Positions 3,127 through 33,561 of a stretch of 64,000 bases of DNA are shown piece by piece. The stretch is from assembly GCA_020053355.1 (NCBI GenBank), contig JAGVNI010000016.1, positions 31,694 through 95,693 of the forward strand. Direction: 5' to 3'. The position numbers and the translations under genes were made by a program. The notes beneath the pieces are model-generated. The model was not told where the DNA came from, did not search any database, and saw only the letters and a program-made list of their open reading frames with translations. How positions within the stretch are numbered: position 1 is the stretch's first letter; the number at the start of each line of letters is the position of its first letter. Source of the DNA: an archaeon (GTDB lineage Archaea; Micrarchaeota; Micrarchaeia; Anstonellales; Bilamarchaeaceae).

Positions 3127-3146
3127 AAACCAAAAGGTGTGAATAT

Positions 3147-4697: not shown

Positions 4698-4778
4698 TAT
4701 GGATATGGGATGCCAAATTCAGCGGATATTTGGCGGGGGAGCGATTCCCCCCCCAAAATGCCGGTTCAGGGGTGCCGG

Positions 4779-13734: not shown

Positions 13735-13800
13735 ATGCCCATGTTCATAAAAATTCTGCAAATTCTTAAAAACCTATGCTTGATTTGTGGAGGCTTTTTA

Positions 13801-16493: not shown

Positions 16494-16597
16494 ATTTCAT
16501 TCCTCCAACCCCGGCAAGAAGCCGGAGGCCGAACCAATAAAAACATGAACGGCATTTATATGATTCTCGGAATATCCGCGAACGGATGTGAACGGAT

Positions 16598-17551: not shown

Positions 17552-18067
17552 ATGAACCGGGGGATGATTTTCGGGATTGGCATGGTCGCCGGCGCGATGC
17601 TTTTTTTCATCCTCCAGCCCCTGCTGATGGCCCCGCAAATCACGACGGTCTTCTCTCCCGATGACGGCGCCAAGGTCATCGGCCTAATCGACAATGCCAA
17701 AGAGACCATCGACATCGAAATCTACGTCTTCACATCGCGCGATGTCGTCGAAGCGCTCGAGAGGGCCAAATCGCGGGGTGTGCAAACCCGCATCATCATA
17801 GAGCGGAACGTCATCAGCGACGATAACGACGCCATATTCCGCGAACTCGCATCCAAGGGTTTCAACATCCGCTACGCGAGTTGCGCATACAAGCTGACGC
17901 ATGCCAAATTCATCATCGTTGACGGCGAGGCGGTCCTGGTCGGCTCCCACAACCTGAGCAACTCGGCCCTTTACAAGAACCGCGAGGCGTCGGTGATAAT
18001 CCGTGATTCGGCGGCGGTCCATGACTTCATGGATGCATTCGCAACTGACTGGGCGCTCGCATCATGA
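17552..18067 (+). CDS. Membrane-anchored PLD-family (Nuc-like) nuclease/phospholipase
   Basis: N-terminal TM helix, VFSP, single HxK(x4)D motif HAKFIIVD..GSHN...NRE. Confidence 0.85.
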   Translation: MNRGMIFGIGMVAGAMLFFILQPLLMAPQITTVFSPDDGAKVIGLIDNAKETIDIEIYVFTSRDVVEALERAKSRGVQTRIIIERNVISDDNDAIFRELASKGFNIRYASCAYKLTHAKFIIVDGEAVLVGSHNLSNSALYKNREASVIIRDSAAVHDFMDAFATDWALAS

Positions 18068-18089
18068 TTCGGGCGAACAGGAGGCGTTT

Positions 18090-19103
18090 TCAGCTCCTCT
18101 GGGCCACGTACCTCCCATAAAGCCTCGAAAAAACCCTATATTTCCCGCGTGCGAGCCTTACAATCTGCCCGCTCTCGAGCAGCCTTTTCATCAGGGTGGA
18201 GGCCGGCCCTGGCGGTTTTCCGGCCTTTTTTGCGATATCCGAGACATGCAGCCCGCCATCCTCCTTCGCAAGGACATGCAGCAGGGCCCTTTCCCCTGGG
18301 GGCGTTTCCTGGTACATCCGGCCGAACCACTCCCGCGAAAGCGTGCCCATTATCTGCGGAAGATATGCGAGATAATGCCCCTTGTTTATCACCTTTTCGT
18401 TGTCCCTGAGCCTTTCATATATGTTATAACAGACAGTCTTCACCAGCCGGGGATTCCCGCCGCAATCCTCCAGGATGGACTGCAGGCACTCCTCACCCAT
18501 CTTCGGCGGGCCTTTCTTGAGGGCCTTCTCCACCAGTTCCCGGGCGTCATGGGCGTCGAACGGCCTCAATTCCATGGACTGCAGCAGGCCGGATTCGACC
18601 TCGAATGATCTCGTCGTGCTGGCTACGAACGACAGGTTGCGTTTCCCCCAGCCCGCCTTCGCCGTCTTGAGGATGGTCCCAAGCGCTTCATCCGCCTTCC
18701 TGATGTTGTCAAAATCATCGATGAATACGATGGCGCCGAACTGGTTCGCGGCAATCCCCTCGACATCCCTTATCAGGGTTCCGATTCCTTTTCCCGCGCC
18801 AGGATTGCGCAATCCTGGCCTTTGCGGCAGCTCCTGGCGCGCCTTGTCCACGACAGAATCCAGGCTTTCGTTCCTCTCCGCCCGGACAAACGGGGCAAGA
18901 AGCCCCGCCTTCTCGGCTTCCTGCCGAAAATCCTCGAGCATGGCGGTTTTTCCGCATCCCGGGCCGCCCCGAACGAGCAATACTGCGCCCTGCTTCGATG
19001 CCGTGCCATTGGCAAAAAAGGAAAAAACCTTCTCTTCCTCCCTTCTCCCGCAAATCCCTTCCGGGTCAGTGCTCCATGGCGCAAACGGGTTCGGCCCCTT
19101 CAT
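18090..19103 (-). CDS. AAA+/archaeal ATPase with C-terminal winged helix
   Basis: PNPF...GRREEE, Walker A GGPGCGKT, Walker B FIDDFD, GGNPR, C-terminal wHTH. Confidence 0.85.
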   Translation of the reverse strand: MKGPNPFAPWSTDPEGICGRREEEKVFSFFANGTASKQGAVLLVRGGPGCGKTAMLEDFRQEAEKAGLLAPFVRAERNESLDSVVDKARQELPQRPGLRNPGAGKGIGTLIRDVEGIAANQFGAIVFIDDFDNIRKADEALGTILKTAKAGWGKRNLSFVASTTRSFEVESGLLQSMELRPFDAHDARELVEKALKKGPPKMGEECLQSILEDCGGNPRLVKTVCYNIYERLRDNEKVINKGHYLAYLPQIMGTLSREWFGRMYQETPPGERALLHVLAKEDGGLHVSDIAKKAGKPPGPASTLMKRLLESGQIVRLARGKYRVFSRLYGRYVAQRS

Positions 19104-19240
19104 TTAAACCACCATCAACATATTATTATAACAACAAACTACAATTCTTGTAGTTTTCGTATTTTTCATACATCCTATGAACATAAACATTTATAAAGCG
19201 GGAAAAGCGCGATAATGACAGTTGTGATTAGGTGTTCGGT

Positions 19241-22200
19241 ATGACATCATTGAAATACGTTCTTGGCGTTCTGGTGCTCGCACTGCTGGCAGGCATGGTC
19301 TTCGCTGACGAGCTTTTCCCTCAGGAAAGCCTGAAGGAGAGCCAGGTCATCATCACCCCTGCAAATACTGAGGGCTCAATCCTCAACCTGACAGTCCTTG
19401 TCTTCGAGCCGGCCACAAGCACCGGCGGCACGGACATACGCACTGTCATGGAGCAGATAGTCCAGGAGTGCGCAAGCGCAGCCAACCGCATGACGTGCAT
19501 AGAGCAGAAGTCCCTCGAGAGGACCGCCGCGTCCAGGGACTATACGATGAACCTGACGTCCCTTCCGAACGCCCATTTCGTGGTGGAATACTTCAACCCG
19601 CAGGGCAATGCATACCGCGGCCAGTGGACCGTCATCGAATCCTGCAATGATATCGTCACCGACCGGGTTGGTGTGGCATACCGCCCAGACCCGACAACCG
19701 GGGCGATGATTGCTTCCAACTATAATTACGTGCAGTGCGACATCGGCCCTTCAGTCGGGCAGATGAGCAGGGCCTACATACGGGCGACATTCGTTCCGCT
19801 TCCGGACCAGCAGGTGAGCCAGAGCTCGGCCGAATATGAATACTCGAACGCCCATGTCACCCCGGCAACCCAGTTCGCGCAGGACCTCCAGAACTTCATA
19901 AGCGGAGTCGCTGACGCAGGAGGCCAGGGCGTGGGCGCAGGCGGCGCACTGCCTTGCGTGGGCCTTTTCATGATAATGGGGCTCCTTCTGGCATCGCTTT
20001 ACTTCTCGGGCAAGTCCCCGATAACCCTACTGGATATCACCACGCCGAGGCTTCCGACTCCCAAAGGCGTGACCGCAAGCGGCCAGATACTCGCGCCGTT
20101 CGGTTACACGGAAATGAAGAAGTCTGCTACTGACAAGATGAGGACCGCGGCAGCGGCCGTGGCGGCAAGCCGGGACATGCTCTCCGGCAGGATGGCCGGC
20201 AATTCAGAGCACGACAATCTTCAGCGGGATATCCGCGCCCAGCGCGGCACCGCGGCGGACCGTGCGGTCGGCAGCGGAGCCGCCAGTGTGGCCCAGGGCC
20301 AGGCAATCGCCAGTTCGCTTGTCACCGCGGGCATGTCGCTCGGCATGCGCGGAAGCGAGCTTGCATCGCTCGCGCGGACGCTCCCGTACCACTACGGCGA
20401 CGCGGAGCACAAGCTTGTCGCCCAGATACTCGCAGGCCTTGAAGCCGCAGGCGGAAGGCAGGCCCTCATGGCCATGACCATCCGCGATTACTTCTACGGC
20501 CAGGCGACTTTCAAGCAGTTGGAAGTGCTGACAGCCCACCCCGAATACGGGAAGAGGAGCGCTGCGCACTACCGCCTCACCAACACGCTCGGCAAGTTCT
20601 ATGGCGCGAACCGCTATGCAATCCTCAGCGGTGTCGTCATGGCAGGCACAGACTCCATGGTCAGGTCCGGCCGCATTCTCGGCAGGATGACCAAGGCAAT
20701 CGCAACCGAGACGCCTCATCTGGCCAGAACCACGGCCAGGACCACGATGGAGATGGTCGGAGGCAAGCACATCGTCGAAGAGCTCGAGGCGCGGGGCAGG
20801 ACCTCGCCGACAGCGGCTTGGGCCGCAGGCCAGCTCCAGAAGCACCCGTCCGAAGTGGTCGTGGGCAACATGTTCCCGGTGAACGACCGGATGTCTCACC
20901 TCTACAAGACGCTCCGCACCGAAGCCCTCAACGATGAAATGAGGTACGTGGTGTGCCAGATCTACAAGAAGATGGGCATCAACTTCCGGATGACCGAGGA
21001 AGAGCTCGCAATGCTTGGGCACAAGGATGTCGACATCCTGAAAGTGTCAGGCTTTTCGACCCTCAATGCGCAGCAGCGCGAGTCGCTCCTTGCGGCAGAG
21101 GCCGAGATAAAACGCACCCTCTCGAACAGTACGCTCAGCGTTCAGGATAGGCTCAGCGCCCTTATGAGGGTCGCCGAAACCCACGGTGCGGTGATAGACC
21201 ACCAGATGGTCAACTTCACGAGGCGCCTTGAGACGATAGAAGCCTCGGCGAACCCGGACCACGTGAAGATGATACTCCTCCAGCAGGTGCTGGAAGAGCA
21301 GAACCGCGTCAAGCAGGCGGTGTCCTCAGGAGGCATGGCGAAGGAGAACGCCTATGTCTGCCACGTCGGCGGAGACACGCTGCGGGGCAACCAGATATGG
21401 GAAACCATGGTTGGCCGCACGATGGTCTACGACGGGGCGAACGGCCACCTGAACGGCGGAATCGCCGAGGAGCTGCTCGGAGCCAGGCTCAAGATAGCGA
21501 ACCGCCTTGCAGGCCTCGACCCCGGGGCAGCCGGGACCATGGAGCTCCTTCCGGAGCACATGAGGAACGCAACCGAGCTCAAGAAGGTCTCCGAGAGGAA
21601 CAGGCAGGACCTGATTTCCCTCTTCACTTCCGAAGGTAAGCAGGAGTTCGCACAGTATGCCGGCAAGAGGAAGCTGTCCACGAACATCGAGAGCGCTTCC
21701 ATATCCCAGCTCGTCGACTTCATGTACGGCGGCAACCTGCCGCGCAGCGGCGATGTGGACAAGAAGACAGGCAGGATGACCTGGTGGAACGCCGATGTCG
21801 AATTGGGCCTCGGAAAGAACCTGACCAAGGTCGACCTGAAGGGGCGCTACACGACGAATGTAGATGTCCGTGAAATCGCTTCGATAGGCGCATGGCTCGA
21901 AGCGCGCATGACGAGAGGCAACATCACATACGCCGACGCGACAGTGGAGGCCCAGGTGAAGCGGCTGCCCGGCTACGCCAGCATGACCGGCGAGCAGGAG
22001 GCCCAGGCGATGAAGAAAATCGCTGTCACCAAGGCGCTTGTCGAGGACCTCGAAGTGAGGTTCAACTCGCAGTTCGGCCACAACGCATACGGCACGACAA
22101 GGGAGTCCATGAAGTTCTACGGCAGCATAATGGGCGGCTTCCTGGAAAAAGCCCTCGAAGACAAGAAACTGCCGAACAACCACGGGGACCTGATGTTCGT

Positions 22201-24010
22201 CCGCGGCATGGACATGTCCAGCCCGAAGGACCTCTCGCACTTCAAGGACCTCCTTGTGAAATACGACAAGGAATACAAGGCCGTAATCAGCAAGCCGATG
22301 ACCTACGACGCAATCGCAGGGTCGAACAAGGCAATCGTGCTCCTCCAGGAAGGCGGATACGCCTACTACAAGAAGGGCATGATACTGAGCGACCTGGACC
22401 GTGTCATGGCAGGCCAGACGGCTCTGCGCGACAACAAGGGCCAGCTCAGGCCGTTCATACCTGAAGATGTCGCCGTCACCTTCGGCTCGAGGGACGACCT
22501 CTCATCCCAGTACCACAAGGCTCGCATGTCCAACGACCCGAACGAGTGGAAACCGTTCATGGAGTCCGTGGTGAAATGGGCAAAGGAGGGCGGCCACTAC
22601 AACTATGACAAGGAGAAGGTGCTCGGCGCAGTCCTCATGGAATATGGCGGAAAGACCCACGACTACGACAGCTTCTGGAAGCACAGCGCCGTGACTGTGG
22701 AGGCGAAACGCAACGTCACCATGGTAGCCCCGTCCGTGTTCCGCATGTTCGGCGTCGAGGCGCCGGAATTGATGAAGGCAGCCTCTCCGTTCCGCAACCT
22801 CGGCCTTGCCAGCATGGACATGGTGTCCAAAGTCGGCATAAAATCAGCCGGAGCGGTCCTGGACACATCATACGGGATAGCGGCAGTCGGCGGTGCCTAC
22901 AGCATCCACTCGAACGAGCTGACCCGGAGGATACTCTCGGGCCAGGACGCGGACAAGCTTACAGCCAAGGAAGCCGCGGCCTACCGCGACTATGCAGTCA
23001 CGCACGGCGCCTTCATCCAGGCGCGCCAGTGGACTGTGGACAGGTCGCCGTTCGGCTACTCCACGTCGCACAGCACGCAGGGTGCTGATGCCGCGCTGTT
23101 CTCGCACGGCCCTGGGCTTACCTTCAAGAAGAAGGACTACATCGGCGCGTACATGGACAAGTCCACGATGATGAACTTCAACGCCCTCTACGGCTTCCCG
23201 ATGGACGCTTCGCGGAAAGTCATGAGCTGGTTCGCGACGCCGATTAGCGCGGCCCAGAAGGAGATGTCCGGGCGTGCAGGCCGGTGGGACACCACGGGCG
23301 ACTCGTTCAGGACGCTCTACCACACCGAGCCCCGCGTGAGGTCTGCCATGCAGGCCCTCCTCAACCCGTTCTCGCTCAGCAGCGGGAAGCTTGCGGAGAA
23401 GCTTAGCGGCTTCACCGGCAAGTCGCGCCACTCGCAGGTGGCGGGCGAAGAGGTCATGCTCGGCCTGTCAGCCGATACCATGGATACGATGCAGACCCGC
23501 AAGGGTGTTGCCGTCGTAGGCAGGTACGGTGACGCCAACCCGCGCGAGAAGTTCTACGATGTCCGCAACGTCCAGCACCTCGACGCCCCGATGGCGAGCG
23601 AGCTGCAGAAAGACTCGGCGTTCAAGTACCAGCAGGACATCAACGACGCGGCCAACAACCTCACTGTCCGGCGCACCGTTTCGGCAGAGTCACTGGCCAT
23701 AAAGAGGCTGCAGGAGATGATGAACTTCAGCAGCTTCCAGACGCCGCAGGGCAGGTTCATGACGCCTGTCCACTTCGCATTAATCGGGCTTGGCATACCT
23801 AACATGATATCCAAGCACGTGGCAGCAGCGAAGCACGGGCAGCAAACCAGCATCGGCGGCGACATGAGGCGCAGCGTGAAGGGCATGTCTGAAGGCATGT
23901 CCCGGCTGATGAAGCCCGGCAACATGGTCTGGGAAGTCCGCTGCGCCCACTGCGGCGCGAGGGGGAACCGCCACCAGAAATGCGGCTCCTGCGGCAAGAC
24001 CATGATTTGA
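19241..24010 (+). CDS. Giant hypothetical membrane protein (~1,589 aa) with C-terminal Cys cluster
   Basis: Long ORF with strong G/C third-position bias; signal peptide; TM helix near aa 240-256 followed by SPITLLDITTPRLP; ends CAHCG..HQKCGSCG; oligo-T tract after the stop. Confidence 0.9.
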   Translation: MTSLKYVLGVLVLALLAGMVFADELFPQESLKESQVIITPANTEGSILNLTVLVFEPATSTGGTDIRTVMEQIVQECASAANRMTCIEQKSLERTAASRDYTMNLTSLPNAHFVVEYFNPQGNAYRGQWTVIESCNDIVTDRVGVAYRPDPTTGAMIASNYNYVQCDIGPSVGQMSRAYIRATFVPLPDQQVSQSSAEYEYSNAHVTPATQFAQDLQNFISGVADAGGQGVGAGGALPCVGLFMIMGLLLASLYFSGKSPITLLDITTPRLPTPKGVTASGQILAPFGYTEMKKSATDKMRTAAAAVAASRDMLSGRMAGNSEHDNLQRDIRAQRGTAADRAVGSGAASVAQGQAIASSLVTAGMSLGMRGSELASLARTLPYHYGDAEHKLVAQILAGLEAAGGRQALMAMTIRDYFYGQATFKQLEVLTAHPEYGKRSAAHYRLTNTLGKFYGANRYAILSGVVMAGTDSMVRSGRILGRMTKAIATETPHLARTTARTTMEMVGGKHIVEELEARGRTSPTAAWAAGQLQKHPSEVVVGNMFPVNDRMSHLYKTLRTEALNDEMRYVVCQIYKKMGINFRMTEEELAMLGHKDVDILKVSGFSTLNAQQRESLLAAEAEIKRTLSNSTLSVQDRLSALMRVAETHGAVIDHQMVNFTRRLETIEASANPDHVKMILLQQVLEEQNRVKQAVSSGGMAKENAYVCHVGGDTLRGNQIWETMVGRTMVYDGANGHLNGGIAEELLGARLKIANRLAGLDPGAAGTMELLPEHMRNATELKKVSERNRQDLISLFTSEGKQEFAQYAGKRKLSTNIESASISQLVDFMYGGNLPRSGDVDKKTGRMTWWNADVELGLGKNLTKVDLKGRYTTNVDVREIASIGAWLEARMTRGNITYADATVEAQVKRLPGYASMTGEQEAQAMKKIAVTKALVEDLEVRFNSQFGHNAYGTTRESMKFYGSIMGGFLEKALEDKKLPNNHGDLMFVRGMDMSSPKDLSHFKDLLVKYDKEYKAVISKPMTYDAIAGSNKAIVLLQEGGYAYYKKGMILSDLDRVMAGQTALRDNKGQLRPFIPEDVAVTFGSRDDLSSQYHKARMSNDPNEWKPFMESVVKWAKEGGHYNYDKEKVLGAVLMEYGGKTHDYDSFWKHSAVTVEAKRNVTMVAPSVFRMFGVEAPELMKAASPFRNLGLASMDMVSKVGIKSAGAVLDTSYGIAAVGGAYSIHSNELTRRILSGQDADKLTAKEAAAYRDYAVTHGAFIQARQWTVDRSPFGYSTSHSTQGADAALFSHGPGLTFKKKDYIGAYMDKSTMMNFNALYGFPMDASRKVMSWFATPISAAQKEMSGRAGRWDTTGDSFRTLYHTEPRVRSAMQALLNPFSLSSGKLAEKLSGFTGKSRHSQVAGEEVMLGLSADTMDTMQTRKGVAVVGRYGDANPREKFYDVRNVQHLDAPMASELQKDSAFKYQQDINDAANNLTVRRTVSAESLAIKRLQEMMNFSSFQTPQGRFMTPVHFALIGLGIPNMISKHVAAAKHGQQTSIGGDMRRSVKGMSEGMSRLMKPGNMVWEVRCAHCGARGNRHQKCGSCGKTMI

Positions 24011-24051
24011 TTTTTTTTTATTTTCTTCAATTTTTCTTTCCTCTTTCCTTT
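24011..24051 (+). terminator. Oligo-T terminator
   Basis: tttttttttattttcttcaatttttctttc directly after the stop codon. Confidence 0.7.
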
Positions 24052-24255
24052 CATCAACCGCGCCATCAGCGGAGCGTGGCGGAGCAAGGCCCCCAGAGTC
24101 CCCCGTCGTCTATAAACAACTTTACGTTGCATGTCGTGGAAAACCTACGACTTTGAGCGTAAGCCCCTGCATTAAATTTAAAAACGTGCCGATGCTTTCC
24201 ATTAACGATGAGACTCCTCAATCATAGGACTACCTCAATTAGGCGGGAGGAACGA

Positions 24256-25362
24256 ATGTCGGGGGAGATAGCGCGAGCGAAGCCGATGGTATCGCAGCGC
24301 CCCGAGCTTCTGCCCGGCTATACGCCTCATTTGTCATACAAGTCTCCGCTCCGGTGCTATGCATACAATAAAAGCGGGAAGCGCGGCTTGCGTGCGGACC
24401 AGGTCACCTGCGGGATGAACCGGAACACCCTGACCCAGAAAGCCCCGCACATTTCGTTTTCGTCGCCATTGGAGCATGCCGCCAACCCTATCCTCAGCGG
24501 CGAGATACGGAACCTGGCATTGAGGTGCTCGCGCTCCCATCATAGCCACCCCTCCCCAACCAATCCGATGCACGCAGGATATGGCCAGGGGTATAACTCG
24601 CATCCGCATGCGCATGGGTACTGGATGGCCGCACAAAACCCGCATGGCGCGCATTTCCGCGCGATGGCCGATGTTTCGGCAAGCGCTTTCACCCGGCATG
24701 GTGTTTTCTCAGAGGACTGGACGCTTCCAAGGGATGCCCAACCCGCGCCTGCAGGCCAGATATCGTCGGCCTCCCCGGCGCATCCGCCACCCAAGCATAT
24801 TCCGGGCGGGAACCCGGATTGCCCGGGTTTAGCGGCTACTAACAATGGCGCATCAGCCAACCAATCCATATCCGAGCTTCCTAGCATCACCCCTCTATAT
24901 GCCGGGGCCGGGGACTCAAGCCTGCAAATCCAATCCCAAGCATCTGAATCTGCGCCAAATGCGCCTGCAGGCGGCAACCCAGGTCCCAACACCTCCTGCG
25001 CGGCCGATACCGCCGCCAGCACGCCAATCCGTTCATCCACAGCCAATCATATGGCGGGTGTCCGGACACCACACCATTTCATCCCTTCCATCCAAGGCGC
25101 AGTCCAAGGCATGGTCCAAGGCACTGCGAATCTGGCGGGACTGTTTGCGGGCCTTCTGCCTGCATCCGGCCAAACCCGTGCAAACCTGCAGGTGTCGCAT
25201 ACAACATCCACCCAATCGGTGGGCGCATATTCCGCAGAAACTCCAAAGGATGGGCAGAACCAATCGCCAAATGCGGCCAAATCCGCCGGGTGCAGTTCCA
25301 CTCGGGCAAGAAAAGCGGCGCAGCTGATTGTGGCAAGGGCAGAAAACCCGCCCCCCGAATAA
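24256..25362 (+). CDS. Hypothetical low-complexity (P/S/A/H-rich) protein
   Basis: ORF fills the gap; GGAGG upstream of ATG 24256; atypical codon use and probably disordered. Confidence 0.45.
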   Translation: MSGEIARAKPMVSQRPELLPGYTPHLSYKSPLRCYAYNKSGKRGLRADQVTCGMNRNTLTQKAPHISFSSPLEHAANPILSGEIRNLALRCSRSHHSHPSPTNPMHAGYGQGYNSHPHAHGYWMAAQNPHGAHFRAMADVSASAFTRHGVFSEDWTLPRDAQPAPAGQISSASPAHPPPKHIPGGNPDCPGLAATNNGASANQSISELPSITPLYAGAGDSSLQIQSQASESAPNAPAGGNPGPNTSCAADTAASTPIRSSTANHMAGVRTPHHFIPSIQGAVQGMVQGTANLAGLFAGLLPASGQTRANLQVSHTTSTQSVGAYSAETPKDGQNQSPNAAKSAGCSSTRARKAAQLIVARAENPPPE

Positions 25363-25408
25363 AGGACAATGTTTAAATTCCCGAACGCGCCAATAATAAT
25401 CGGTGTCC

Positions 25409-27961
25409 ATGAGACCAGCAGTCTTCATACCGGCGCTTCTGGCATTGCTTTGCCTCTCATTTGTCATCTCCGGATGCCTTGCGAAACTAAACGGCGGCTC
25501 CTCGGCATTCGAGCACGAATACCGCGACAACCTCAGCCGGGTGGCGATATACAACTCCTCCATGGCCGAGTTCTGCAGGCCTGGAAGCTGCTGGTGCATG
25601 GTCTGCAAGAACGGCACCAACATATTCGGGCCCCTCAACAACCTGATTGGCGGCTACTGCTACTATGACAAGAACTGCACGCCCGCGATGATGGCGAGCT
25701 ACAACAACCGCACGGCCAACCCGGACCTGACCGTCCGGCAGTTCATGATAGGGCAGGGGCCAACATTCGGCGATTTCGGCGCAGCCAACACGCAATGCTC
25801 GGACCGCCTGAGCATGTCTGTGCAATGGCTTGTCGGCTCGAACGTATCCCCGTACATACGGCCTGATGCGGTCCGCACCATGTGCTTCCTGAGCAAGGAC
25901 ATAATCCCGGTCTACATCCTCTACAGCAACGGCTCCAACATCAACATCACCCGTTCGCGCGATATCGGCACGATTCTCGGCACCGAAGGCGACGACGTCT
26001 TCATGGGCCGATTGTCCGACGGCCCTGTCGGCCCCGTCGTAGTAGTCACCGAGATGGATTTTGATCGGAGCAAGGCCGCGGAAGTAGCCAACCAGGTCCG
26101 CGCCATCGACCAGGGGTGCGGGAACGACCGGGCCAACAACAAGATATTCTGCTTCATCGCTGTCGCCCCGAAAATCAACGATTTCGAAGCCCTCGACACC
26201 GTCATGAGGGAGCTTGGCGCAGATGCCGACAAGGTCGACCTGGTCGCATACGGCATCAACGGGAAATACCTCCACTCATGCGAAGGCGCGCGGGCGAGGC
26301 AGCAGGCGCTGAATTTCTCATCATACGCCCTATACAACTGGAGCAAGCCGACAATCATCCCATACGTCCTTTTCGACCCCGGGACTAACGACACGGACAA
26401 CTCGTGCACGTGGGGCGAGAACGACGTCGTCTCAGCCTACGGGGCGTTCTTCCCCTTCGGCGTCACGACATTGCAAAAGCGCGGCGTCGTGGGCATAGCG
26501 CCATACTCATACAACACGTCCGGCGGCATAGGCGTCACGAACCCCCTGAACTGCTCGGACTGCGGCGTGGCGAGGACGGCATCCCGCCTGCGCGCCTGGT
26601 ACGCGGGCTGCCAGGCTTATACCAACGTCACAAGGCCCTCAGGCAACGTCCCCTCAGGCTCGACGCAGATTCTCTTCGGCAACGAATCAGGCACTTCGTG
26701 CAACTCCAACACGAATTTCGATTTCATGCGCGGCTTCAGTTTCGCCGGCCGCGACATAATGCAGCAGCAGACCACGCAGCTCCGGGATGCGGCGCCGCTC
26801 CTTTTCACGTGCGACGCCTGCCTGCTCGCGAACTCGAGCCGTCCTATCAGCGACATATTCGCGAGCCTCCGCCCGTCGACCGGAGCGGCCCCGGACCGTT
26901 ACTGCACGAGCTATCCTGAAATCAACCAATGGGCTAGCGCCCGCAACCTGGACCCGATGCTGGTCCGGGCTTTCGTGCTTACTGAAAGCGATTTCAACCC
27001 CTGCTCTGCCGCAAGGGTATGCAGGCAGGGCTATGACGACGGCCGGTGCTTCGAGCCTGGTCCCGGAAAGGACGAGTGCTATGACATGTCATACGATGAG
27101 ATGTACGACCCGGCGGGGAACTGCACATTCGACATCGCCCCGAATTCGGGCAGCGCACAGCCAGACTGGCGCTACTGTGCGGTCGGCATCATGCAGAGCC
27201 TCGAGCCGCCATACACGTTCTGGCCGGCATCAGTGAATCCTGATGGCGCAAACGGCCCGTATTTCGACGTCTTCGACCGCTCCGGTTTCCGCACCCTTGA
27301 CCTGAACGGCGTCAAGGCGTGCAATCCCCGCTTCAACCCGTTCGTGGCAGCCGATTCAATATGCATCGGGACTGCCAAGCTGGAATCCGCCCTCCGTGCC
27401 GCACGGGGCTGGATAAACTCGCACCGCGGCCAGCTGAACTGGGGCTCGGGCGACATTGACAAGGACAGCCTTTTCGCGGCATATGTCGCCGGCAACATGT
27501 ATTCCGGCTTCTGGGGCAGCAAGTCAAGGTCGGCGGACCACCCGAGGTGCTCCAGCGGCGTCTCAAATGGCGACTGCTGGGCTTACGGCTTCTCGCTCAG
27601 CTGGGCCGTGAATGACACATACTGCGCATCAGACGCGGGCCAGGACGACCCGCACTGCGAGGGCGGCCACCCGAAGAAGAACCCTCCGTACGAGTGCTAC
27701 GGCTACTCGGACTTCATCCAGTACGTGCAGGAGTGCGAGGTGCCATTCCTTCCGCGCAGGGTTGACCCTGGCAAGGGCAAGGTGGAGGCATTCCTGTGGC
27801 TTAGCAACGGATGCCCGAACAACTTCTGCCCTGATGGCAAGAAGCTTTTCCAGCTCATGGAACGCTCACTGCCTGGAAGCGGCACCCCTTACATACCGGA
27901 CAATCCGACCTGCTCGACGACCTCGTCATCCGGCGGCGGCCTGAGCCTTGGCGGGGGGTAG
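25409..27961 (+). CDS. Cys-rich predicted lipoprotein with lytic transglycosylase (SLT)-like domain, copy 1
   Basis: Lipobox-like VISGC; SLT motifs LDPMLVRAFVLTESDFNP, GIMQ, SICIGTAKL, FAAYVAG. Confidence 0.75.
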   Translation: MRPAVFIPALLALLCLSFVISGCLAKLNGGSSAFEHEYRDNLSRVAIYNSSMAEFCRPGSCWCMVCKNGTNIFGPLNNLIGGYCYYDKNCTPAMMASYNNRTANPDLTVRQFMIGQGPTFGDFGAANTQCSDRLSMSVQWLVGSNVSPYIRPDAVRTMCFLSKDIIPVYILYSNGSNINITRSRDIGTILGTEGDDVFMGRLSDGPVGPVVVVTEMDFDRSKAAEVANQVRAIDQGCGNDRANNKIFCFIAVAPKINDFEALDTVMRELGADADKVDLVAYGINGKYLHSCEGARARQQALNFSSYALYNWSKPTIIPYVLFDPGTNDTDNSCTWGENDVVSAYGAFFPFGVTTLQKRGVVGIAPYSYNTSGGIGVTNPLNCSDCGVARTASRLRAWYAGCQAYTNVTRPSGNVPSGSTQILFGNESGTSCNSNTNFDFMRGFSFAGRDIMQQQTTQLRDAAPLLFTCDACLLANSSRPISDIFASLRPSTGAAPDRYCTSYPEINQWASARNLDPMLVRAFVLTESDFNPCSAARVCRQGYDDGRCFEPGPGKDECYDMSYDEMYDPAGNCTFDIAPNSGSAQPDWRYCAVGIMQSLEPPYTFWPASVNPDGANGPYFDVFDRSGFRTLDLNGVKACNPRFNPFVAADSICIGTAKLESALRAARGWINSHRGQLNWGSGDIDKDSLFAAYVAGNMYSGFWGSKSRSADHPRCSSGVSNGDCWAYGFSLSWAVNDTYCASDAGQDDPHCEGGHPKKNPPYECYGYSDFIQYVQECEVPFLPRRVDPGKGKVEAFLWLSNGCPNNFCPDGKKLFQLMERSLPGSGTPYIPDNPTCSTTSSSGGGLSLGGG

Positions 27962-27971
27962 GCTCATCCAA

Positions 27972-30584
27972 ATGCCTTCGGAAGCGGAAAGTTTGTTGAA
28001 TAATAAATCCGTATCCCTCCCACTATTTCTCCTGGCATTGATATGCTTCGCTTTCGCCCTCTTCGGGTGCCTGTCGAAAACCGACATGGGTCCTTCGTTG
28101 TTCGAGCAGGAATACCGGGACAACCTGAACCGGGTGGCGATATACAACTCATCGATGAGTGGGTTATGCAGGCCTGGAAGCTGCTGGTGCATGGTCTGCA
28201 AGAACGGCACCAACATATTCGGTCCCCTCACCAACCTGATCGGCGGCTATTGCTACTATGACAAGAACTGCACGCCGGAGCAGATGGCAAGATATGCCAA
28301 CTACAACAACTCCGGCGACCCAAGCCTTTCAGTCCGGGCATTCATGATTGGCCAAGGGCCCACTTTCGGCGATTTCGGCGCTGCCAATACCCAGTGCTCG
28401 GACCGCCTGAGCATGTCCGTGCAGTGGTTGGTTGGGACGAACGAATCGCCATACCTGCGTCCCGACGCAGTCCGTTCCATGTGCTTCCTCAGCAAGGACA
28501 TAATCCCGGTCTACATCCTCTACAGCAACGGCACCAACATCAACATCACGCGCTCGCGGGAAATCGGCACGATTCTCGGCACTGAAGGCGATGACGTCTT
28601 CATGGGAAGGCTGTCCGACGGCCCGGTCGGGCCGGTCGTAGTAGTCACCGAGATGGATTTCGATAAAAGCAAGGCTGCGGAAATTGCCAACCAGGTCCGC
28701 GCAATCGACCAGGGGTGCAGGAATGATAGGGCTAACAATAAGATATTCTGCTTCATCGCAGTCGCCCCGAAGATAAACGATTTCGAGGCGCTTGACGCAG
28801 TCATGCGGGAATTAAGCGCGGACCGCGACAAGGTCGACCTTGTCGCATACGGCATCAACGGCAAATACCTCCACTCATGCGACGGGGCGAGGGCGAGGCA
28901 GCAGGCCCTGAATTTCTCCTCATACGCCCTATACAACTGGAGCAAGCCGACAATCATCCCATACGTCCTTTTCGACCCAGGGACCAACGACACGGACAAT
29001 TCGTGCACGTGGGGCGAGAACGACGTCGTCTCAGCCTACGGGGCGTTCTTCCCCTTCGGAGTCACGACATTGCAGAAGCGCGGCGTAGTGGGCATCGCGC
29101 CGTATTCTTTCAACACCTCGGGCGGCATAGGAGTCACCAACCCACTTAACTGCTCAGATTGCGGCGTGGCGAGGACTCAATCGCGCCTGCGCGCATGGTA
29201 CGGCGGCTGCCAGGCGTACACGAACGTGACCCGGCCTTCGGGCAGCAATCCGTCCGGATCCACGCTGATACTTTTCGGAAACGAATCCGGGACCACCTGC
29301 AACGTCAATACAAATTTTGATTACATGCGGGGCTTCAGTTTCGCCGGCCAGGATATCATGCAGCAGCAAGCCAATGGGCTTCGGGAGGCCGCGCCGCTCC
29401 TTTTCACATGCGACGCCTGCCTGCTCGCGAACGCAAGCCGCCCTGTCAGCGATATGTTCCCGAGCCTCCACCCCTCAACCGGCGTGCCGCCTGACCGCTA
29501 CTGCACGAGCTATCCTGAAATCAACCAGTGGGCGAGCGCCCGCAACCTCGACCCGATGCTGGTGCGGGCATTCGTGCTTACTGAAAGCGATTTCAACCCC
29601 TGCTCAGCCGCAAGGGTGTGCCGGCAGGGCTATGACGATGGCCGCTGCTTCGAACCTGGGCCCGGAAAGGACGAATGCTATGACAATGCATATGATGAGA
29701 TGTACGACCTCCCGACCGGCAACTGCACATTCGACATCGCCCCCAATTCAGGCAGCACCCAGCCGGATTGGCGCTACTGCGCCCTGGGGCTGATGCAGAC
29801 TCGTGAACCCCCATTCACTTTCTGGCCTTCAACCATGCGTTCGGACGGAATGAACGGCCCTTACTTCGACGTATTCGACCGTTCGGGCTTCCACACCCTG
29901 AATCTTAACGCTGCCAAAGGATGCAATCCCAATTTCAGTCCGTTTGCGCCTGCGGATTCGATATGCCTGGGCACGCTGACAATGGAAAACGATTTGAGGG
30001 CGGCCAGAGGCTGGATAAACTCGCACCGGGGCCAATTGAACTGGCCAGCCAGTGATATCGACAAGGATGCCCTTGCCATCGCATATGTCGCAGGCAACAT
30101 GTACGCAGGATTCTGGAACATGCCGGGAAGCGCGCGCGTCCCGTATGAAGGCCAGGAGCACCCGAGATGCTCGAGCGGCGTCTCAAACGGCGACTGCTGG
30201 GCTTATGGGTTCTCCCTTAGCTGGGCGGTGAACGAGACTTACTGCGCATCATCGGCGGGCCAGAGCGACCCCCACTGCGAGGGCGGCCACCCGAAAAAGA
30301 ATCCGCCATTCGAATGCTATGGCTATACTGATTTCATCCAGTATGTGCAGGACTGCGAAGTGCCCTTCCTGCCCCGCAAGGCAGACCCCGGAAAGGCCAA
30401 GGTCGAAGCCTTCATATATCTCAGCAACGGCTGCGCGAACAACTTCTGCCCTGATGGCAAGAAGCTTTTCCAGCTCATGGAACGCTCACTGCCTGGAAGC
30501 GGCACCCCTTACATACCCGACCTTCCGACATGCTCGACGACCTCGACAACGGGCGGCGGCGGCCTGAGCCTTGGCGGTGGATAG
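27972..30584 (+). CDS. Cys-rich predicted lipoprotein with SLT-like domain, copy 2 (tandem paralog)
   Basis: ALFGC; LDPMLVRAFVLTESDFNP, ALGLMQ, IAYVAG; collinear with copy 1. Confidence 0.75.
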   Translation: MPSEAESLLNNKSVSLPLFLLALICFAFALFGCLSKTDMGPSLFEQEYRDNLNRVAIYNSSMSGLCRPGSCWCMVCKNGTNIFGPLTNLIGGYCYYDKNCTPEQMARYANYNNSGDPSLSVRAFMIGQGPTFGDFGAANTQCSDRLSMSVQWLVGTNESPYLRPDAVRSMCFLSKDIIPVYILYSNGTNINITRSREIGTILGTEGDDVFMGRLSDGPVGPVVVVTEMDFDKSKAAEIANQVRAIDQGCRNDRANNKIFCFIAVAPKINDFEALDAVMRELSADRDKVDLVAYGINGKYLHSCDGARARQQALNFSSYALYNWSKPTIIPYVLFDPGTNDTDNSCTWGENDVVSAYGAFFPFGVTTLQKRGVVGIAPYSFNTSGGIGVTNPLNCSDCGVARTQSRLRAWYGGCQAYTNVTRPSGSNPSGSTLILFGNESGTTCNVNTNFDYMRGFSFAGQDIMQQQANGLREAAPLLFTCDACLLANASRPVSDMFPSLHPSTGVPPDRYCTSYPEINQWASARNLDPMLVRAFVLTESDFNPCSAARVCRQGYDDGRCFEPGPGKDECYDNAYDEMYDLPTGNCTFDIAPNSGSTQPDWRYCALGLMQTREPPFTFWPSTMRSDGMNGPYFDVFDRSGFHTLNLNAAKGCNPNFSPFAPADSICLGTLTMENDLRAARGWINSHRGQLNWPASDIDKDALAIAYVAGNMYAGFWNMPGSARVPYEGQEHPRCSSGVSNGDCWAYGFSLSWAVNETYCASSAGQSDPHCEGGHPKKNPPFECYGYTDFIQYVQDCEVPFLPRKADPGKAKVEAFIYLSNGCANNFCPDGKKLFQLMERSLPGSGTPYIPDLPTCSTTSTTGGGGLSLGGG

Positions 30585-30744: not shown

Positions 30745-31842
30745 CTAAGACAGCCATTCCTTGCCCTTGATTTTCTTGTTGATGTACTCGCCGACGAACG
30801 TGAGCCGTTGTCCCTGCAGGGCATCCTGCTCTATCTTCTTCCTCGTTTTCAGGACCATCTTCAGTTCGCGCACCCAGTCCGCGTAGCGGTTTATCCAGGG
30901 GTACCCGAGCATTTCTTCCGCGCGCTTCACATCCACGTCCTTGGCCTTGATGGTGAGCTTGTCGAGGAAGTCGAATTCCTTGATGTCGCTCATCGTCACG
31001 CCGAGGAACTTGGATTCGGGGACCGCGAAATCCTTGCCCAGATACGCCAGGTTCATGCTGCCGGTCTTGATTGTCCAGTAGATGTACCATCCCCAGGCAT
31101 CGCAGTCCATCAGGCAGTAAATCGGGAGCTTCTTGTCGGCAAGTTTCCGGAGCAGCCTCCGTGTTCCCCTAGTGGACTGGCCTTTCGGGGTGACAAGGAG
31201 GCAGTTCTCCTTCTTCCAGAACTTGTCCTCGTTCAGCCTCTGCCAGAGCGCGTCCTTCTCCACGACCAGCACATAATCGGCATCCAGCTCCTTGATTTCC
31301 ATGCCATTGTCCACGTCGGAAGGGATGCTCCAGCCGCTTCGGCCCTGCTTGGATAGGTCGATTAGCGTATCATCGCCCCCGAACTTGTCCATGATAGTCA
31401 TCGGCCCGGCCACGAACCCTTTCCGGTCTGTCGTGAGGTTGAGGTCTTCCCGCTTAATCTTGAGGGCCACTTCCAGGTCCTCTATAAGTGCGTTTGACTC
31501 GGATTGCTCCGTGAACAGGTCCTCGTCGATGTCTTCCCCGAGGGTGAATTTCAGCTGGTAGAAAAGGCCCCTAATCGACGTGTGCAGGTTTTCCTTGAGG
31601 AACTGCCTGCTTTTCGCGGCTATTGCGACGGTCTGCATGAACGTGCGCGCCTGAGCCACGCTCAGGAACTTCCTGGTTTCCTTCTTCTCCCCGGTCCTGA
31701 GGCACCCCATCCCCTCGTCGAAAATGGTGTTGCTTTTTGTGCGCAGGACGGTCTCGAACGTGGGCCCTTCCCCTCTCTGGACCTCGTTCACCATCTGTTT
31801 CCCCATCGCCTGAAGCTTTGAATTGGCAGCGTCGCTCATCAC
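30745..31842 (-). CDS. top6A: DNA topoisomerase VI subunit A
   Basis: SIRGLFY, FTEQSES..LIEDLE, VVEKDA, KGQ, DCDAWG, KIEQDAL. Confidence 0.96.
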   Translation of the reverse strand: MMSDAANSKLQAMGKQMVNEVQRGEGPTFETVLRTKSNTIFDEGMGCLRTGEKKETRKFLSVAQARTFMQTVAIAAKSRQFLKENLHTSIRGLFYQLKFTLGEDIDEDLFTEQSESNALIEDLEVALKIKREDLNLTTDRKGFVAGPMTIMDKFGGDDTLIDLSKQGRSGWSIPSDVDNGMEIKELDADYVLVVEKDALWQRLNEDKFWKKENCLLVTPKGQSTRGTRRLLRKLADKKLPIYCLMDCDAWGWYIYWTIKTGSMNLAYLGKDFAVPESKFLGVTMSDIKEFDFLDKLTIKAKDVDVKRAEEMLGYPWINRYADWVRELKMVLKTRKKIEQDALQGQRLTFVGEYINKKIKGKEWLS

Positions 31843-33470
31843 TCTTCACCCTCTTCCTCAGGCTTCCCGTTGCCTGGCACCGCGCCCGGTTCGGGGTCCT
31901 TTTCCTCGGTCTCCTCGACCTCCATGTCCTCGCGCGCGTATTTCTCCTCGATTATTTTTGTGAGCGCCTTCTCGATTTCCGCCTTCTTTTCTCCGGTCAA
32001 CGATGCGAGGTCGCCAGAAAGCTGCTGGATGTACCTGCTCACGACCTTCTTCTTGGTGGCAATCTCATGCGCCTTCCTCTTGCCGGAAAGATATTTCTGG
32101 ACACCGCGTGAGGCCTCCATTATCGCGAACTTGATTTCGTCCATGACATCCTCTTCAAGGGACACGGCCTGCTTGCCCGCGCTGGTGTAGGGGACATGGA
32201 CGCTGACGAGGTTCACGAGGACCGCTATCGGCTCCTCCTCGAAATTCTTGACATCGTACCTCTTCCAGTCCATCGTCTTTATCGTTTCCGTGATTGCGCA
32301 GCCGCCCGAATCGAAAAGCAGGGGGACGCGGTTGGCAAACCTCATCACCTCCCCCTTCTTGCCCGCCCCGGCAACGCCGCCGCCATAGGCGATGCCCACT
32401 TCGACCATGAACGGGATGCCCCCGCGGTAAACCTTCGGGCTCCGTTCTGTGACGACCAGCACTTCCGGGTTGAAAATGTTCCGGAAAGACACTTCGACCT
32501 GCTCCTTGCCTATCGGCACGAGGGAATCCATGGCCGGGGCAATCCATTTCACTTGCGAGAAAGCCTTGACCAATGATTCGGCCTCCTCCCATGTGAGGTC
32601 CTGCGGGCTCTTGTTCAGGTCTACTGTAGGAAGGAGGGCGCGCAATTCCTCGACTTTGCCGGCGCTCACCCTTGAAAACGTTTCCTGGAGGAACGACGAG
32701 AGCCTGCGGCTCTCCCGGTTATGCCTGGCGAATTCCAGAAGGTCGTGCGTCCCGATTCCCAATGGGTGGGGCTTGATTTCCATGGGCTTGGCCGGGTTGA
32801 CGGCAACGGAGCGCGGGAACGAAGTGCTCTTGTTGTCCGGCTCGATTAGCGTTATCGCGCAGTGCGGGTTCGCGAGCGCAGTGCGCCGGAGATACTCGTA
32901 TACGCCGTAATTGCTCCGCTCATAGCGCACATCCTTGAATTCGGAAATGAATGTGAGGCCAACCTCCCCCTCGACGGCATCCACTTCTTCGATGATATCC
33001 ACAATGGGCTTGTTCTGCTTGAAATCTATGCTTATGCTGGCCGTGACCTTCTTCCCTTTGTAAACGGATACGGCCTTTGTGGGCTGGCCGGTCGTGAGGT
33101 AGGAGAACATGGTGCACGCAGCCGCCCCGATTCCCTGCTGGCCCCTCTGCTGGAGGTAGCGGTGGAACTTCGTTCCTGCCAGCATCTGGCCGAGCGCTTT
33201 TCCAAGGTGCGTCTTCGGGATGCCCGGGCCGTTGTCCTTGATTGTGAGCCTGTAATGCTCCTTCTCGCGGTCCAATTCCTCCACCTGGACGAAAATCTCA
33301 GGGAGTATGCCCGCCTCCTCGCAGGCATCCAGCGAGTTCGTGACTATCTCGTGCACGATTATGGTCATTGAGCGGACCTTTCCCGAAAATCCGAGCATCT
33401 GCCGGTTCTTCTTGAAGAACTCAGCGACCGAATGCTCCTTGAACTGCTTGAAAATGTCGTCTTCTGGCAT
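31839..33470 (-). CDS. top6B: DNA topoisomerase VI subunit B
   Basis: SVAEFFKKN, HEIVTNSLDACE, DNGPGI, RGQQGIG, RFANRVPLLF. Confidence 0.97.
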   Translation of the reverse strand: MPEDDIFKQFKEHSVAEFFKKNRQMLGFSGKVRSMTIIVHEIVTNSLDACEEAGILPEIFVQVEELDREKEHYRLTIKDNGPGIPKTHLGKALGQMLAGTKFHRYLQQRGQQGIGAAACTMFSYLTTGQPTKAVSVYKGKKVTASISIDFKQNKPIVDIIEEVDAVEGEVGLTFISEFKDVRYERSNYGVYEYLRRTALANPHCAITLIEPDNKSTSFPRSVAVNPAKPMEIKPHPLGIGTHDLLEFARHNRESRRLSSFLQETFSRVSAGKVEELRALLPTVDLNKSPQDLTWEEAESLVKAFSQVKWIAPAMDSLVPIGKEQVEVSFRNIFNPEVLVVTERSPKVYRGGIPFMVEVGIAYGGGVAGAGKKGEVMRFANRVPLLFDSGGCAITETIKTMDWKRYDVKNFEEEPIAVLVNLVSVHVPYTSAGKQAVSLEEDVMDEIKFAIMEASRGVQKYLSGKRKAHEIATKKKVVSRYIQQLSGDLASLTGEKKAEIEKALTKIIEEKYAREDMEVEETEEKDPEPGAVPGNGKPEEEGEE

Positions 33471-33561
33471 ACGAATCACTCGGCATGGGTTTCTGGCTGT
33501 GTATCGTGCCACAGCTATTAATATCTTGCCTTGACCACTGCTTGAGAGCCTGCGCAATCCC

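Follow-up and report, generated by a model that had tools for sequence, protein, structure and literature searches.

Two tandem genes of a Micrarchaeota genome encode predicted lipid-tethered proteins that join a TIM barrel to a strongly diverged lysozyme-like domain

Introduction

Family-1 lytic transglycosylases cleave the beta-1,4 bond between MurNAc and GlcNAc by a non-hydrolytic reaction that yields 1,6-anhydro-MurNAc, and they have G-L-M-Q and A-Y-N-x-G as signature motifs. Specialised lytic transglycosylases are attached to trans-envelope machines, for example EtgA of type III secretion and VirB1 of type IV secretion. Goose-type lysozyme and the chitinase of glycoside hydrolase family 23 (GH23) act by hydrolysis, do not form 1,6-anhydro products and possess extra Asp residues. 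Domains of the SLT type have also been reported from DPANN archaea: in the relevant passages, Chen et al. (2018; PMC5864196) note that three genomes of Micrarchaeota encode a lytic murein transglycosylase, Castelle et al. (2021; PMC8204110) describe large extracellular SLT-domain proteins in Pacearchaeota and Woesearchaeota, and Vigneron et al. (2022; PMC9723730) discuss GH23 genes of Woesearchaeota as signs of predation. In the present work, we analysed two adjacent genes (copy 1 and copy 2) lying within positions 25,409 to 30,584 of a window of 64,000 nucleotides, which is the whole stretch of DNA considered here and comes from contig JAGVNI010000016.1 of a genome (GCA_020053355.1) assigned to the Bilamarchaeaceae, phylum Micrarchaeota.

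According to the data described below, we consider it moderately probable that each of the two genes codes for an exported and tethered glycanase, which would carry two glycan-active modules, cleave an N-acetylhexosamine glycan outside the cell and be partnered with a membrane protein of 1592 amino acids (aa); within this statement, bacterial murein as the target is given somewhat less than half of the weight.

Results

The predicted lysozyme-like domain

It had been noticed from the letters alone (hereafter, the sequence-only reading) that both copies carry SLT-type motifs in the canonical order, and the motifs are indeed there: copy 1 harbors LDPMLVRAFVLTESDFNP from residue 516, GIMQ at 595, SICIGT at 652 and AYVAG at 693, and copy 2 harbors TES, with the Glu at 546, GLMQ at 614, SICLGT at 671 and AYVAG at 712 (residue numbers of copy 1 refer to the 852 aa counted from the GTG codon at 25403). 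The Pfam SLT profile (PF01464) matches the same stretch in both copies, over profile positions 3–33 of 117, and the same weak match was retrieved from 40 of the 57 family members scanned singly, with a best E of 2e-4; because of this agreement, and of the conservation of the key residues, the motif set stands above chance. To count the latter, 196 proteins were aligned to the family profile, yielding 229 domain rows: Glu528 is present in 169/181, Ser529 in 163/181, Gly595 in 173/174, Gln598 in 170/179 and Tyr694 in 134/176 (Phe in 26), and the catalytic position of the full-length members is occupied by Glu in 145/153 rows. As far as the sequences indicate, the putative catalytic Glu and the groove motifs of this GH23-type domain appear to be under selection. 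In addition, the alignment of the family profile with Escherichia coli EmtA/MltE by hhalign (33 columns, E 0.0027, with a probability of only 11%) places Glu528 on the catalytic Glu64, the residue whose change to Gln (E64Q) gives the inactive MltE mutant listed in PDB titles.

The two halves of the protein were folded separately by AlphaFold on an alignment of 57 sequences. The model of the C-terminal half (aa 440–852) reached a predicted local distance difference test (pLDDT) value of 91.0 and a predicted template modelling (pTM) score of 0.87. When it was compared with the PDB by Foldseek, ranks 1–17 were all occupied by lytic transglycosylases (E 0.03–0.16), MltE being the best (0.03). VIA, a Foldseek-independent structure search over 48,161 PDB representatives, in which best Z values of 7–8 are common for unmatched models, returned ten chains with a Z of at least 8, all of the GH23 type: MltF 5aa1 (Z 11.2, root-mean-square deviation (rmsd) 3.5, 166 aligned residues), 5o2n (10.8), MltC 4c5f (10.2, 21% identity), Slt70 1qsa (9.9), g-type lysozyme (9.5), MltE 4hjy (9.3), Cj0843c (9.2), Slt (9.0), the Ralstonia GH23 chitinase (8.5) and MltD (8.3). 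The structural signal is thus clear in the model and not overwhelming, its strength lying in the uniform list of matches, which also accords with the alignment of the motifs.

In the model, Glu528 and Ser529 end a helix (518–529), and the strands 536–540 and 589–594 form the lysozyme hairpin, within which lies a first, Cys-rich insert of 48 residues (aa 541–588). GIMQ follows the hairpin, a second insert of about 50 residues (aa 599–648) precedes the SICIGT helix (649–673), AYVAG lies in the helix 685–701, and a Cys-rich helical module of 120 aa (716–835) is packed on the lysozyme-like core. On the basis of this model, the C-terminal half would be a strongly diverged GH23/SLT lysozyme-like fold with Cys-rich inserts.

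A number of results count against this assignment and, with it, against the function discussed further on. The sequence-only reading had suggested that the region could be checked against SLT and GH23, and the outcome was a divided one: a lysozyme-like fold was modelled, as that reading had supposed, and the Glu of the ES pair aligns with Glu64 of MltE, but the membership in Pfam SLT was not borne out by sequence, since both scores, 13.4 bits (E 0.06) for one copy and 12.5 bits (E 0.11) for the other, stay below the curated threshold of 21.3 bits. NCBIfam gave nothing on either copy; the family profile searched against the PDB sequences retrieved no SLT chain, its only match, with an E of 0.047, being irrelevant; hhalign gave no meaningful alignment with E. 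coli Slt70, and the low probability of that with MltE belongs here as well. Moreover, Foldseek found no PDB match for the C-terminal model at an E of 0.001 or lower, and the best VIA Z, about 11, exceeds the background of 7–8 only moderately. Finally, GH23 holds hydrolytic lysozymes and a chitinase, both among the matches, so that a lytic-transglycosylase chemistry, like the bond that would be cleaved, is putative.

The N-terminal barrel

The N-terminal region had been read as a glycoside-hydrolase TIM barrel from strings that, in copy 1, start at residues 211 (PVVVVTEMDFD), 278 (VDLVAYG), 315 (KPTIIPY) and 361 (GVVGIAPY). The fold was borne out by the model, whereas the word hydrolase was not established, given the Tyr found at strand 7. 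In fact, the model of the N-terminal half (aa 26–480; pLDDT 88.9, pTM 0.89) consists of eight strand–helix units, and Foldseek retrieved 286 PDB chains at an E of 0.001 or lower, with GH26, GH53 and GH5 enzymes in the lead and the GH26 structure 7xs3 as the best match (E 1.4e-6, probability 1.00). The best 50 VIA rows are all TIM-barrel glycosidases or transglycosidases, headed by the GH26 lichenase 2bv9 (Z 17.5, rmsd 3.5, 242 aligned residues); TIM barrels match one another widely, and the 697 chains with a VIA Z of at least 8 mean that the result shows the fold class and not the family. The ESM Atlas gave leads only (unnamed clusters at 0.91, GH26 at 0.89), and no Pfam, NCBIfam or PDB sequence match was found for the barrel.

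The most conserved residues are Glu217 (155/163), Tyr321 (163/164), Tyr368 (161/164) and Asp279 (149/162). Glu217 directly follows strand 4 (212–215), and Pro320-Tyr321 follow strand 7 (317–319). In clan GH-A enzymes, strand 4 ends with the acid/base Glu and strand 7 with a second Glu, the nucleophile. In the strand map obtained with DSSP, the only source for the placement of Glu217 and Tyr321, strand 7 is followed by Tyr321 and by no conserved carboxylate; the nearest carboxylates, Asp325 (106/159) and Glu339 (104/160), are less conserved. Hence, the barrel likely lacks the clan GH-A nucleophile; it may be non-catalytic and mainly glycan-binding, or it may follow another mechanism, and these points, too, have to be set against the reading of the protein as a two-module glycanase. 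A candidate mechanism would be that of GH18, GH20 and GH85, in which a 2-acetamido sugar is cleaved by substrate-assisted catalysis.

In the more distant lineages of the phylum, only the barrel part matches, in proteins of other lengths: in distant Micrarchaeota families, the barrel alone (profile positions about 200–400) lies within open reading frames (ORFs) of 1744–2791 aa (e.g., G051, G168, G273, G093, and G231). This implies that the barrel serves as a module in further giant surface proteins within the phylum.

Export and surface tethering

Both copies start with a hydrophobic leader, which ends in ISGC in copy 1 and in LFGC in copy 2. These ends agree with the lipobox rule [LVI][ASTVI][GAS]C, although the FG of the copy 2 LFGC deviates from the strict -3/-2 rule, and in the alignment of 57 sequences the lipobox residues G24 and C25 show a conservation of 90% or more. 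The motif definition, that of archaeal lipoproteins dependent on AliA/AliB, was taken from PMC12462473, a source that describes lipoproteins and the AliA family (arCOG02177) as common in DPANN. The genome measures 1.59 Mb and is 90% complete, and all genome-wide negatives reported here are to be read against that completeness; a search of it for the bacterial enzymes Lgt (PF01790) and LspA (PF01252) gave no match, as expected for archaea. Each copy possesses 38 Cys residues (4.5% in copy 1 and 4.4% in copy 2) and 18 or 19 N-x-S/T sequons.

Judging from their sequences, both products are probably exported by the Sec pathway and tethered to the membrane through the lipidated Cys of the lipobox; by prediction and conservation, they would be disulfide-rich, glycosylated exported proteins. 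The surface tethering put forward by the sequence-only reading is consistent with the lipobox and with the prevalence of DPANN lipoproteins reported in PMC12462473. The adjective giant was too strong for proteins of 850–870 aa.

The upstream membrane protein

The gene located upstream of the pair codes for a protein with a signal peptide (aa 1–24), an ectodomain of about 210 aa with four Cys (aa 25–236), a transmembrane helix (about aa 238–259) and about 1330 cytoplasmic residues, which end in a C4 zinc ribbon (CxxC...CxxC). No consistent Pfam, NCBIfam, PDB-sequence (phmmer) or usable ESM Atlas match was obtained for it, and a profile of 13 sequences gave only marginal matches to L32-like zinc ribbons (E of at least 0.8). 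The ectodomain evolves fast, with 21–71% identity within and near the genus, and beyond it is not alignable; the transmembrane helix and the juxtamembrane stretch (about aa 238–310, with a SPxSLLDITTPRLP-like consensus) are conserved across the order, being matched in 87 of 111 genomes.

In 12 of the 14 loci of 20 kb that were compared, the glycanase gene is immediately preceded by a same-strand ORF of 1555–1867 aa; of the remaining two, one is interrupted by a contig end and one has a shorter ORF. Both genes could be placed in 67 genomes, and in 56 of them they share contig and strand and are adjacent, their starts being 2.3–6.2 kb apart; in the other 11, they lie on different contigs of fragmented assemblies. 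The prediction of a complex between copy 1 (aa 50–832) and the ectodomain (aa 25–236) gave a score of 0.08 and a mark of 0.32, which speak neither for nor against binding.

Family size and phylogenetic distribution

A word-indexed search retrieved 63 relatives of the glycanase, all hypothetical or unnamed and none with a precomputed Pfam domain. The exhaustive profile search yielded 303 clusters at an E of 0.001 or lower (1e-3) among 1.84 billion representatives, which points to a small self-contained family with no sequence link to the huge bacterial SLT family.

The phylogenetic distribution of both genes was checked in 301 genomes sampled across the phylum, whose taxonomic families are numbered here with an f. 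The glycanase family is present in 125 of them: in 62/64 of f1 (the family of the window itself), 21/23 of f2, 13/14 of f6, 4/4 of f15 and 5/5 of f18; in two other large sampled families, it was found in 0/75 (f10) and 1/54 (f11). The profile of the membrane protein gave the same total, 125/301, with 64/64 in f1, 22/23 in f2, and none in f10 (0/75), f11 (0/54), f13 (0/7) and f14 (0/15); the exceptions to the shared pattern are f6 (7/14) and f12 (4/7). The relatives are not independent, and the agreement is to be taken as a pattern and not as a statistic. By prediction and conservation, the glycanase and the 1592-aa protein form a fixed genetic partnership.

These data bear on a different explanation, according to which the enzyme would act on archaeal glycans, i.e., the S-layer or N-glycans of the cell itself, a putative envelope polysaccharide of its own, or, on an archaeal host, the glycocalyx or N-glycans; it would then be a housekeeping enzyme of envelope remodelling or of host contact that cuts bonds of the N-acetylglucosamine-beta-1,4-N-acetylglucosamine (GlcNAc-beta-1,4-GlcNAc) type. 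A vertically inherited core gene of f1, f2 and f6, with a fixed place near Topo VI, agrees with this, and so does its co-inheritance with a membrane protein of huge cytoplasmic domain, as expected for a cell-autonomous machine. The same holds for the GH23 chitinase that matches the model, for the binding of chitopentaose by MltE (stated in a PDB title), for the strand-4 Glu with the invariant Tyr after strands 7 and 8, which brings to mind the substrate-assisted N-acetylhexosaminidases, and for the muropeptide-recycling genes, none of which was found in the genome. However, the best structural matches are murein lytic transglycosylases and not chitinases, the conserved ES, GLMQ and AYxAG are the signature of family-1 lytic transglycosylases, and our searches gave no indication of an endogenous polysaccharide wall. 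On the whole, we consider an archaeal glycan as the substrate rather unlikely, albeit a possibility to be taken seriously.

Duplication and the third paralogue

Among the 301 genomes, the one studied here is the only one with two full-length copies. They share 705/835 identities (84%) with nine gaps in BLASTP, and in a quick maximum-likelihood tree of 24 sequences (IQ-TREE) they are sisters (SH-aLRT 96) beside the closest orthologues. The comparison of the two copies gave 0.745 synonymous (dS) and 0.094 nonsynonymous (dN) substitutions per site, with a dN/dS of 0.126; dN is 0.138 in the lysozyme-like region, the most diverged one, and 0.054 in the barrel. As read from the sequences, the tandem duplication would be old, with both copies under purifying selection, and the greater divergence in the lysozyme-like domain suggests two related specificities.

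Moreover, a third paralogue of 473 aa is located on another contig (L003:1018-2439; C7:11342-12274 region), next to a transposase-like ORF of the OrfB_IS605/TnpB type and to a ScpB gene. It consists of a lipobox, a linker rich in Ser, Thr, Ala and Pro, and the lysozyme-like domain alone, in which several Cys are lost and the motif reads TQS, i.e., with Gln in place of the catalytic Glu. Such domain-only forms constitute a sub-family of 22 rows, 18 with Glu and four with Gln, the third paralogue included.

Gln at the catalytic position implies that binding-only versions exist in the family, and one might think of the whole protein as a non-catalytic adhesin, both domains of which would be lectin-like glycan binders that hold the cell on the surface of a partner. 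This idea can draw on the barrel, which has no canonical second carboxylate, and on the third paralogue with the three other domain-only relatives (4/22), the change to Gln being a classic substrate-trapping one. It is at odds with the full-length members, which keep the catalytic Glu as well as Ser529 and Gln598, and with the purifying selection on both copies, which would fit retained catalysis; we therefore hold it to be very improbable.

The locus and its genomic setting

The coordinates of the features described are reported in Table 1. The ORF of copy 1 (25403..27961) encodes 852 aa from a GTG or 850 from the ATG at 25409, and that of copy 2 (27948..30584) encodes 878 aa from a TTG or 870 from the ATG at 27972; both are on the forward strand and open throughout, and the TTG-opened ORF of copy 2 overlaps the stop of copy 1. 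The two ATG codons are the likely translation starts. The tail of copy 1 that follows the Cys-rich helical module is variable and composed of Ser, Thr and Gly.

Table 1. Position of the two copies, of their domains and of the upstream elements in the window.
Feature	Position	Strand	Basis
Copy 1, two-domain glycoprotein with lipobox, 850 aa from ATG (predicted)	25409..27961 (stop included)	+	ORF, BLASTP, lipobox
Copy 1, predicted signal peptide with the lipobox ISGC at its end; codon of the Cys 25475-25477	25409..25477	+	Conservation of G24 and C25
Copy 1, N-terminal domain, aa 60-440: Cys-rich hairpin and predicted (beta/alpha)8 barrel of clan GH-A type; Glu217 codon 26051-26053	25580..26722	+	Model, Foldseek, VIA
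Copy 1, predicted GH23/SLT-like lysozyme-fold domain, aa 498-715; Glu528 codon 26984-26986	26894..27547	+	Model, VIA, hhalign
Copy 1, C-terminal Cys-rich helical module (modelled), aa 716-835	27548..27907	+	Model, conserved Cys columns
Copy 2, 870 aa from ATG; lipobox LFGC, Cys codon 28068-28070; Glu546 codon 29583-29585	27972..30584	+	ORF, BLASTP, tree
Gene of the 1592-aa orphan single-pass membrane protein	19232..24010	+	ORF, hydrophobicity and Cys map
Spacer, 1.4 kb	24011..25408		Similarity, Rfam, repeat and GC scans

The spacer between the membrane-protein gene and copy 1 has no second copy in the genome; at this place, the relatives have only about 50–170 nucleotides. Neither blastx, nor tblastx, nor blastn retrieved any similarity for it, and a match of 33 nucleotides was all that was found in 25 congeners; a decayed gene copy, a repeat and an RNA were considered and discarded, there being no similarity, no repeats and no Rfam family. 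It contains an ORF of 384 aa (24208-25362), whose GC content is flat by codon position (0.59/0.58/0.62) compared to the third-position GC content (GC3) of 0.73–0.81 of the neighbours, and which is therefore probably not coding. A promoter-like TTTAAA box is found at 25372, about 30 nucleotides before the ATG of copy 1.

That the tandem pair belongs to an archaeon, as the sequence-only reading had stated, is confirmed by its surroundings, which include TFB (13735-14715), the Topo VI A and B subunits (30745-33557, minus strand) and a KH/Pno1-like protein, and by the named homologues, labelled by their sources as Micrarchaeota, ‘Candidatus Bilamarchaeum’ or ‘Candidatus ainarchaeum’. A prophage or mobile origin of the two copies was rejected: their place between the membrane-protein gene and Topo VI is syntenic in divergent genomes, and their GC3 equals that of the neighbours. 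No RNA run was listed, and three runs of DNA sequencing reads (shares of 0.22, 0.07 and 0.06) gave, on this locus, only fragments of 150–370 nucleotides from relatives, none of them across the junction of the two copies.

As for the other genes of the window, a PLD-like (PLDc_2) gene and a gene coding for a divergent AAA/ATPase_2 and winged-helix protein (17552-19103) lie upstream of the two-gene module; together with Topo VI, they are syntenic in many loci, the PLD-like and AAA genes keeping their place in several divergent genomes (L016, L017, L018, L024 and L025). Co-directional genes for an ABC ATPase, a CARDB/NPCBM-associated surface protein and two permeases of the MacB/FtsX type (2389-7217) possibly represent an export system for a surface component. 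Lastly, at 15588-17464, a DUF5667/DUF5304 protein (minus strand) is encoded beside a protein of 288 aa, the latter with a weak LPXTG-anchor-like match and a MarR-type winged helix, which is an odd combination for an archaeon.

Discussion

In principle, the data can be arranged in the following scheme. Each gene would code for a surface glycoprotein exported by the Sec pathway, lipid-tethered and stabilised by many disulfides. Its first module would be the N-terminal (beta/alpha)8 barrel of clan GH-A type and its second module a diverged family-1 lytic-transglycosylase/GH23 domain, in which the putative catalytic Glu528 (copy 1) or Glu546 (copy 2) would stand at the end of a helix and be followed by the beta-hairpin and the groove motifs GLMQ and AYxAG, with Cys-rich inserts in between. 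Outside the cell, the protein would cleave a glycan of beta-1,4-linked N-acetylhexosamines, most likely the peptidoglycan of a host or of a neighbouring cell, or a wall polymer similar to it, and it would act with the upstream membrane protein as one lineage-specific envelope module. The sequence-only reading had likewise named bacterial cells or a host glycan as putative targets. The two copies would represent an old tandem duplicate, kept under purifying selection and possibly endowed with two related specificities.

As for the substrate, a murein or pseudomurein made by the cell itself was rejected: the only Mur_ligase_M match in the genome is FolC (TIGR01499, 337 bits), and no transpeptidase of the penicillin-binding protein type was found. 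Since no synthesis of its own murein or pseudomurein was seen, the obvious substrate of a family-1 lytic-transglycosylase-like domain would be the peptidoglycan of another cell. Nor were AnmK, Amidase_2, GH3/NagZ or NagB-type genes found, so that feeding on muropeptides is not supported; a local opening of the wall, or an attachment to it, would fit this result better than feeding. The same genes bear on the idea of a nutritional exo-enzyme, by which the cell would scavenge amino sugars from peptidoglycan or chitin debris of the sediment. Two glycan-active domains on one secreted protein would suit such an enzyme, and DPANN genes for ‘peptidoglycan degradation’ have been so interpreted in the passages of PMC9723730 dealing with them; but the protein would be tethered by its lipobox and not released, the genes that would process the products were not found, and the strict pairing with a giant membrane protein is unexpected for a simple digestive enzyme. 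We regard this explanation as quite improbable.

To the points already set against a tethered glycanase directed at bacterial murein, two more must be added. A core, vertically inherited gene tied to a huge cytoplasmic domain equally suits a cell-autonomous envelope function. The other point concerns the hosts. To our knowledge, the Thermoplasmatales have no peptidoglycan. They are the only hosts named for Micrarchaeota in the pertinent passages of PMC5864196.

A more specific proposal, which we put forward as unlikely but worth stating, is that the membrane protein and the lipoprotein form a wall-breaching contact device specific to Micrarchaeota, used on bacteria by a large, non-acidophilic branch of the phylum (cross-domain episymbiosis or predation). 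If this were true, local opening of the murein would be the task of the lipoprotein, and recognition of the partner that of the fast-evolving ectodomain; the cytoplasmic part of 1300 aa would couple the contact to the archaeal cell, and with the tandem duplicate more kinds of wall could be breached.

For Micrarchaeota outside acid mine drainage, no host is known, nor any means by which they would make contact with other cells. A murein-type cutting domain that looks catalytically intact, is hidden from standard annotation and is locked to an orphan giant membrane protein offers a handle, which can be cloned, on whom these archaea touch and how. Moreover, GH23 gains a very divergent and insert-rich branch, and the barrel departs in its catalytic set from the clan GH-A pattern, which matters for the classification of these enzymes. 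The general theme being published, the value of the case lies mainly in its detail and testability.

Comparison with known systems

The family-1 lytic transglycosylases (MltE/EmtA, MltC, Slt70, MltF, and MltD) share with the domain described here the lysozyme-like fold (Z 11.2–8.3) and the same order of a helix-end Glu followed by Ser, G-L/I-M-Q and A-Y-x-A-G; like the Mlt lipoproteins, the two copies are predicted to be lipid-tethered and extracytoplasmic. They differ from these enzymes in their archaeal host, in the Pfam score below the cut-off, in the fusion to a TIM barrel, in the Cys-rich inserts of about 48 and 50 residues and in the additional Cys-rich helical module of 120 aa. Furthermore, the Ser found in MltE nine residues after the Glu (S73) is Ala in this family. 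The same fold is also that of the goose-type lysozyme and of the chitinase of Ralstonia sp. A-471 (Z 9.5 and 8.5).

As for the barrel, it shares with clan GH-A (GH26 lichenase/xylanase, GH5 mannanases, and GH53 galactanases) the eight strands, and by the strand map its conserved Glu217 falls where these enzymes have the acid/base residue; it differs in having T-E in place of N-E-P, an added Cys-rich N-terminal hairpin and, again by the strand map, an invariant Tyr at the strand-7 position.

The SLT proteins published for DPANN, as portrayed in the passages cited in the Introduction, are likewise secreted, of SLT type and read as binders or degraders of bacterial walls; in contrast to the present family, they are recognised by standard annotation, can be as long as 3,000 aa and have been placed in other phyla. 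The family described here has no Pfam annotation, a fixed architecture of barrel and SLT-like domain of about 850 aa, and a fixed partner gene. In the literature on transglycosylases and peptidoglycan of Micrarchaeota and DPANN, supplementary tables being outside its scope, we did not find the architecture of a barrel plus a split SLT domain described, nor the pairing with a protein of 1592 aa.

EtgA, which VIA aligns with the C-terminal model at Z 6.8 and 5.1, and VirB1 offer a further likeness, in that a domain of the wall-cutting type is genetically locked to a membrane apparatus; here, however, the partner is a single orphan protein and not a known secretion system, and the pairing is known from the genes alone. 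SLT domains in DPANN are, in conclusion, a known theme, to which this case adds the architecture of a barrel with a split SLT domain, the orphan partner and the duplication.

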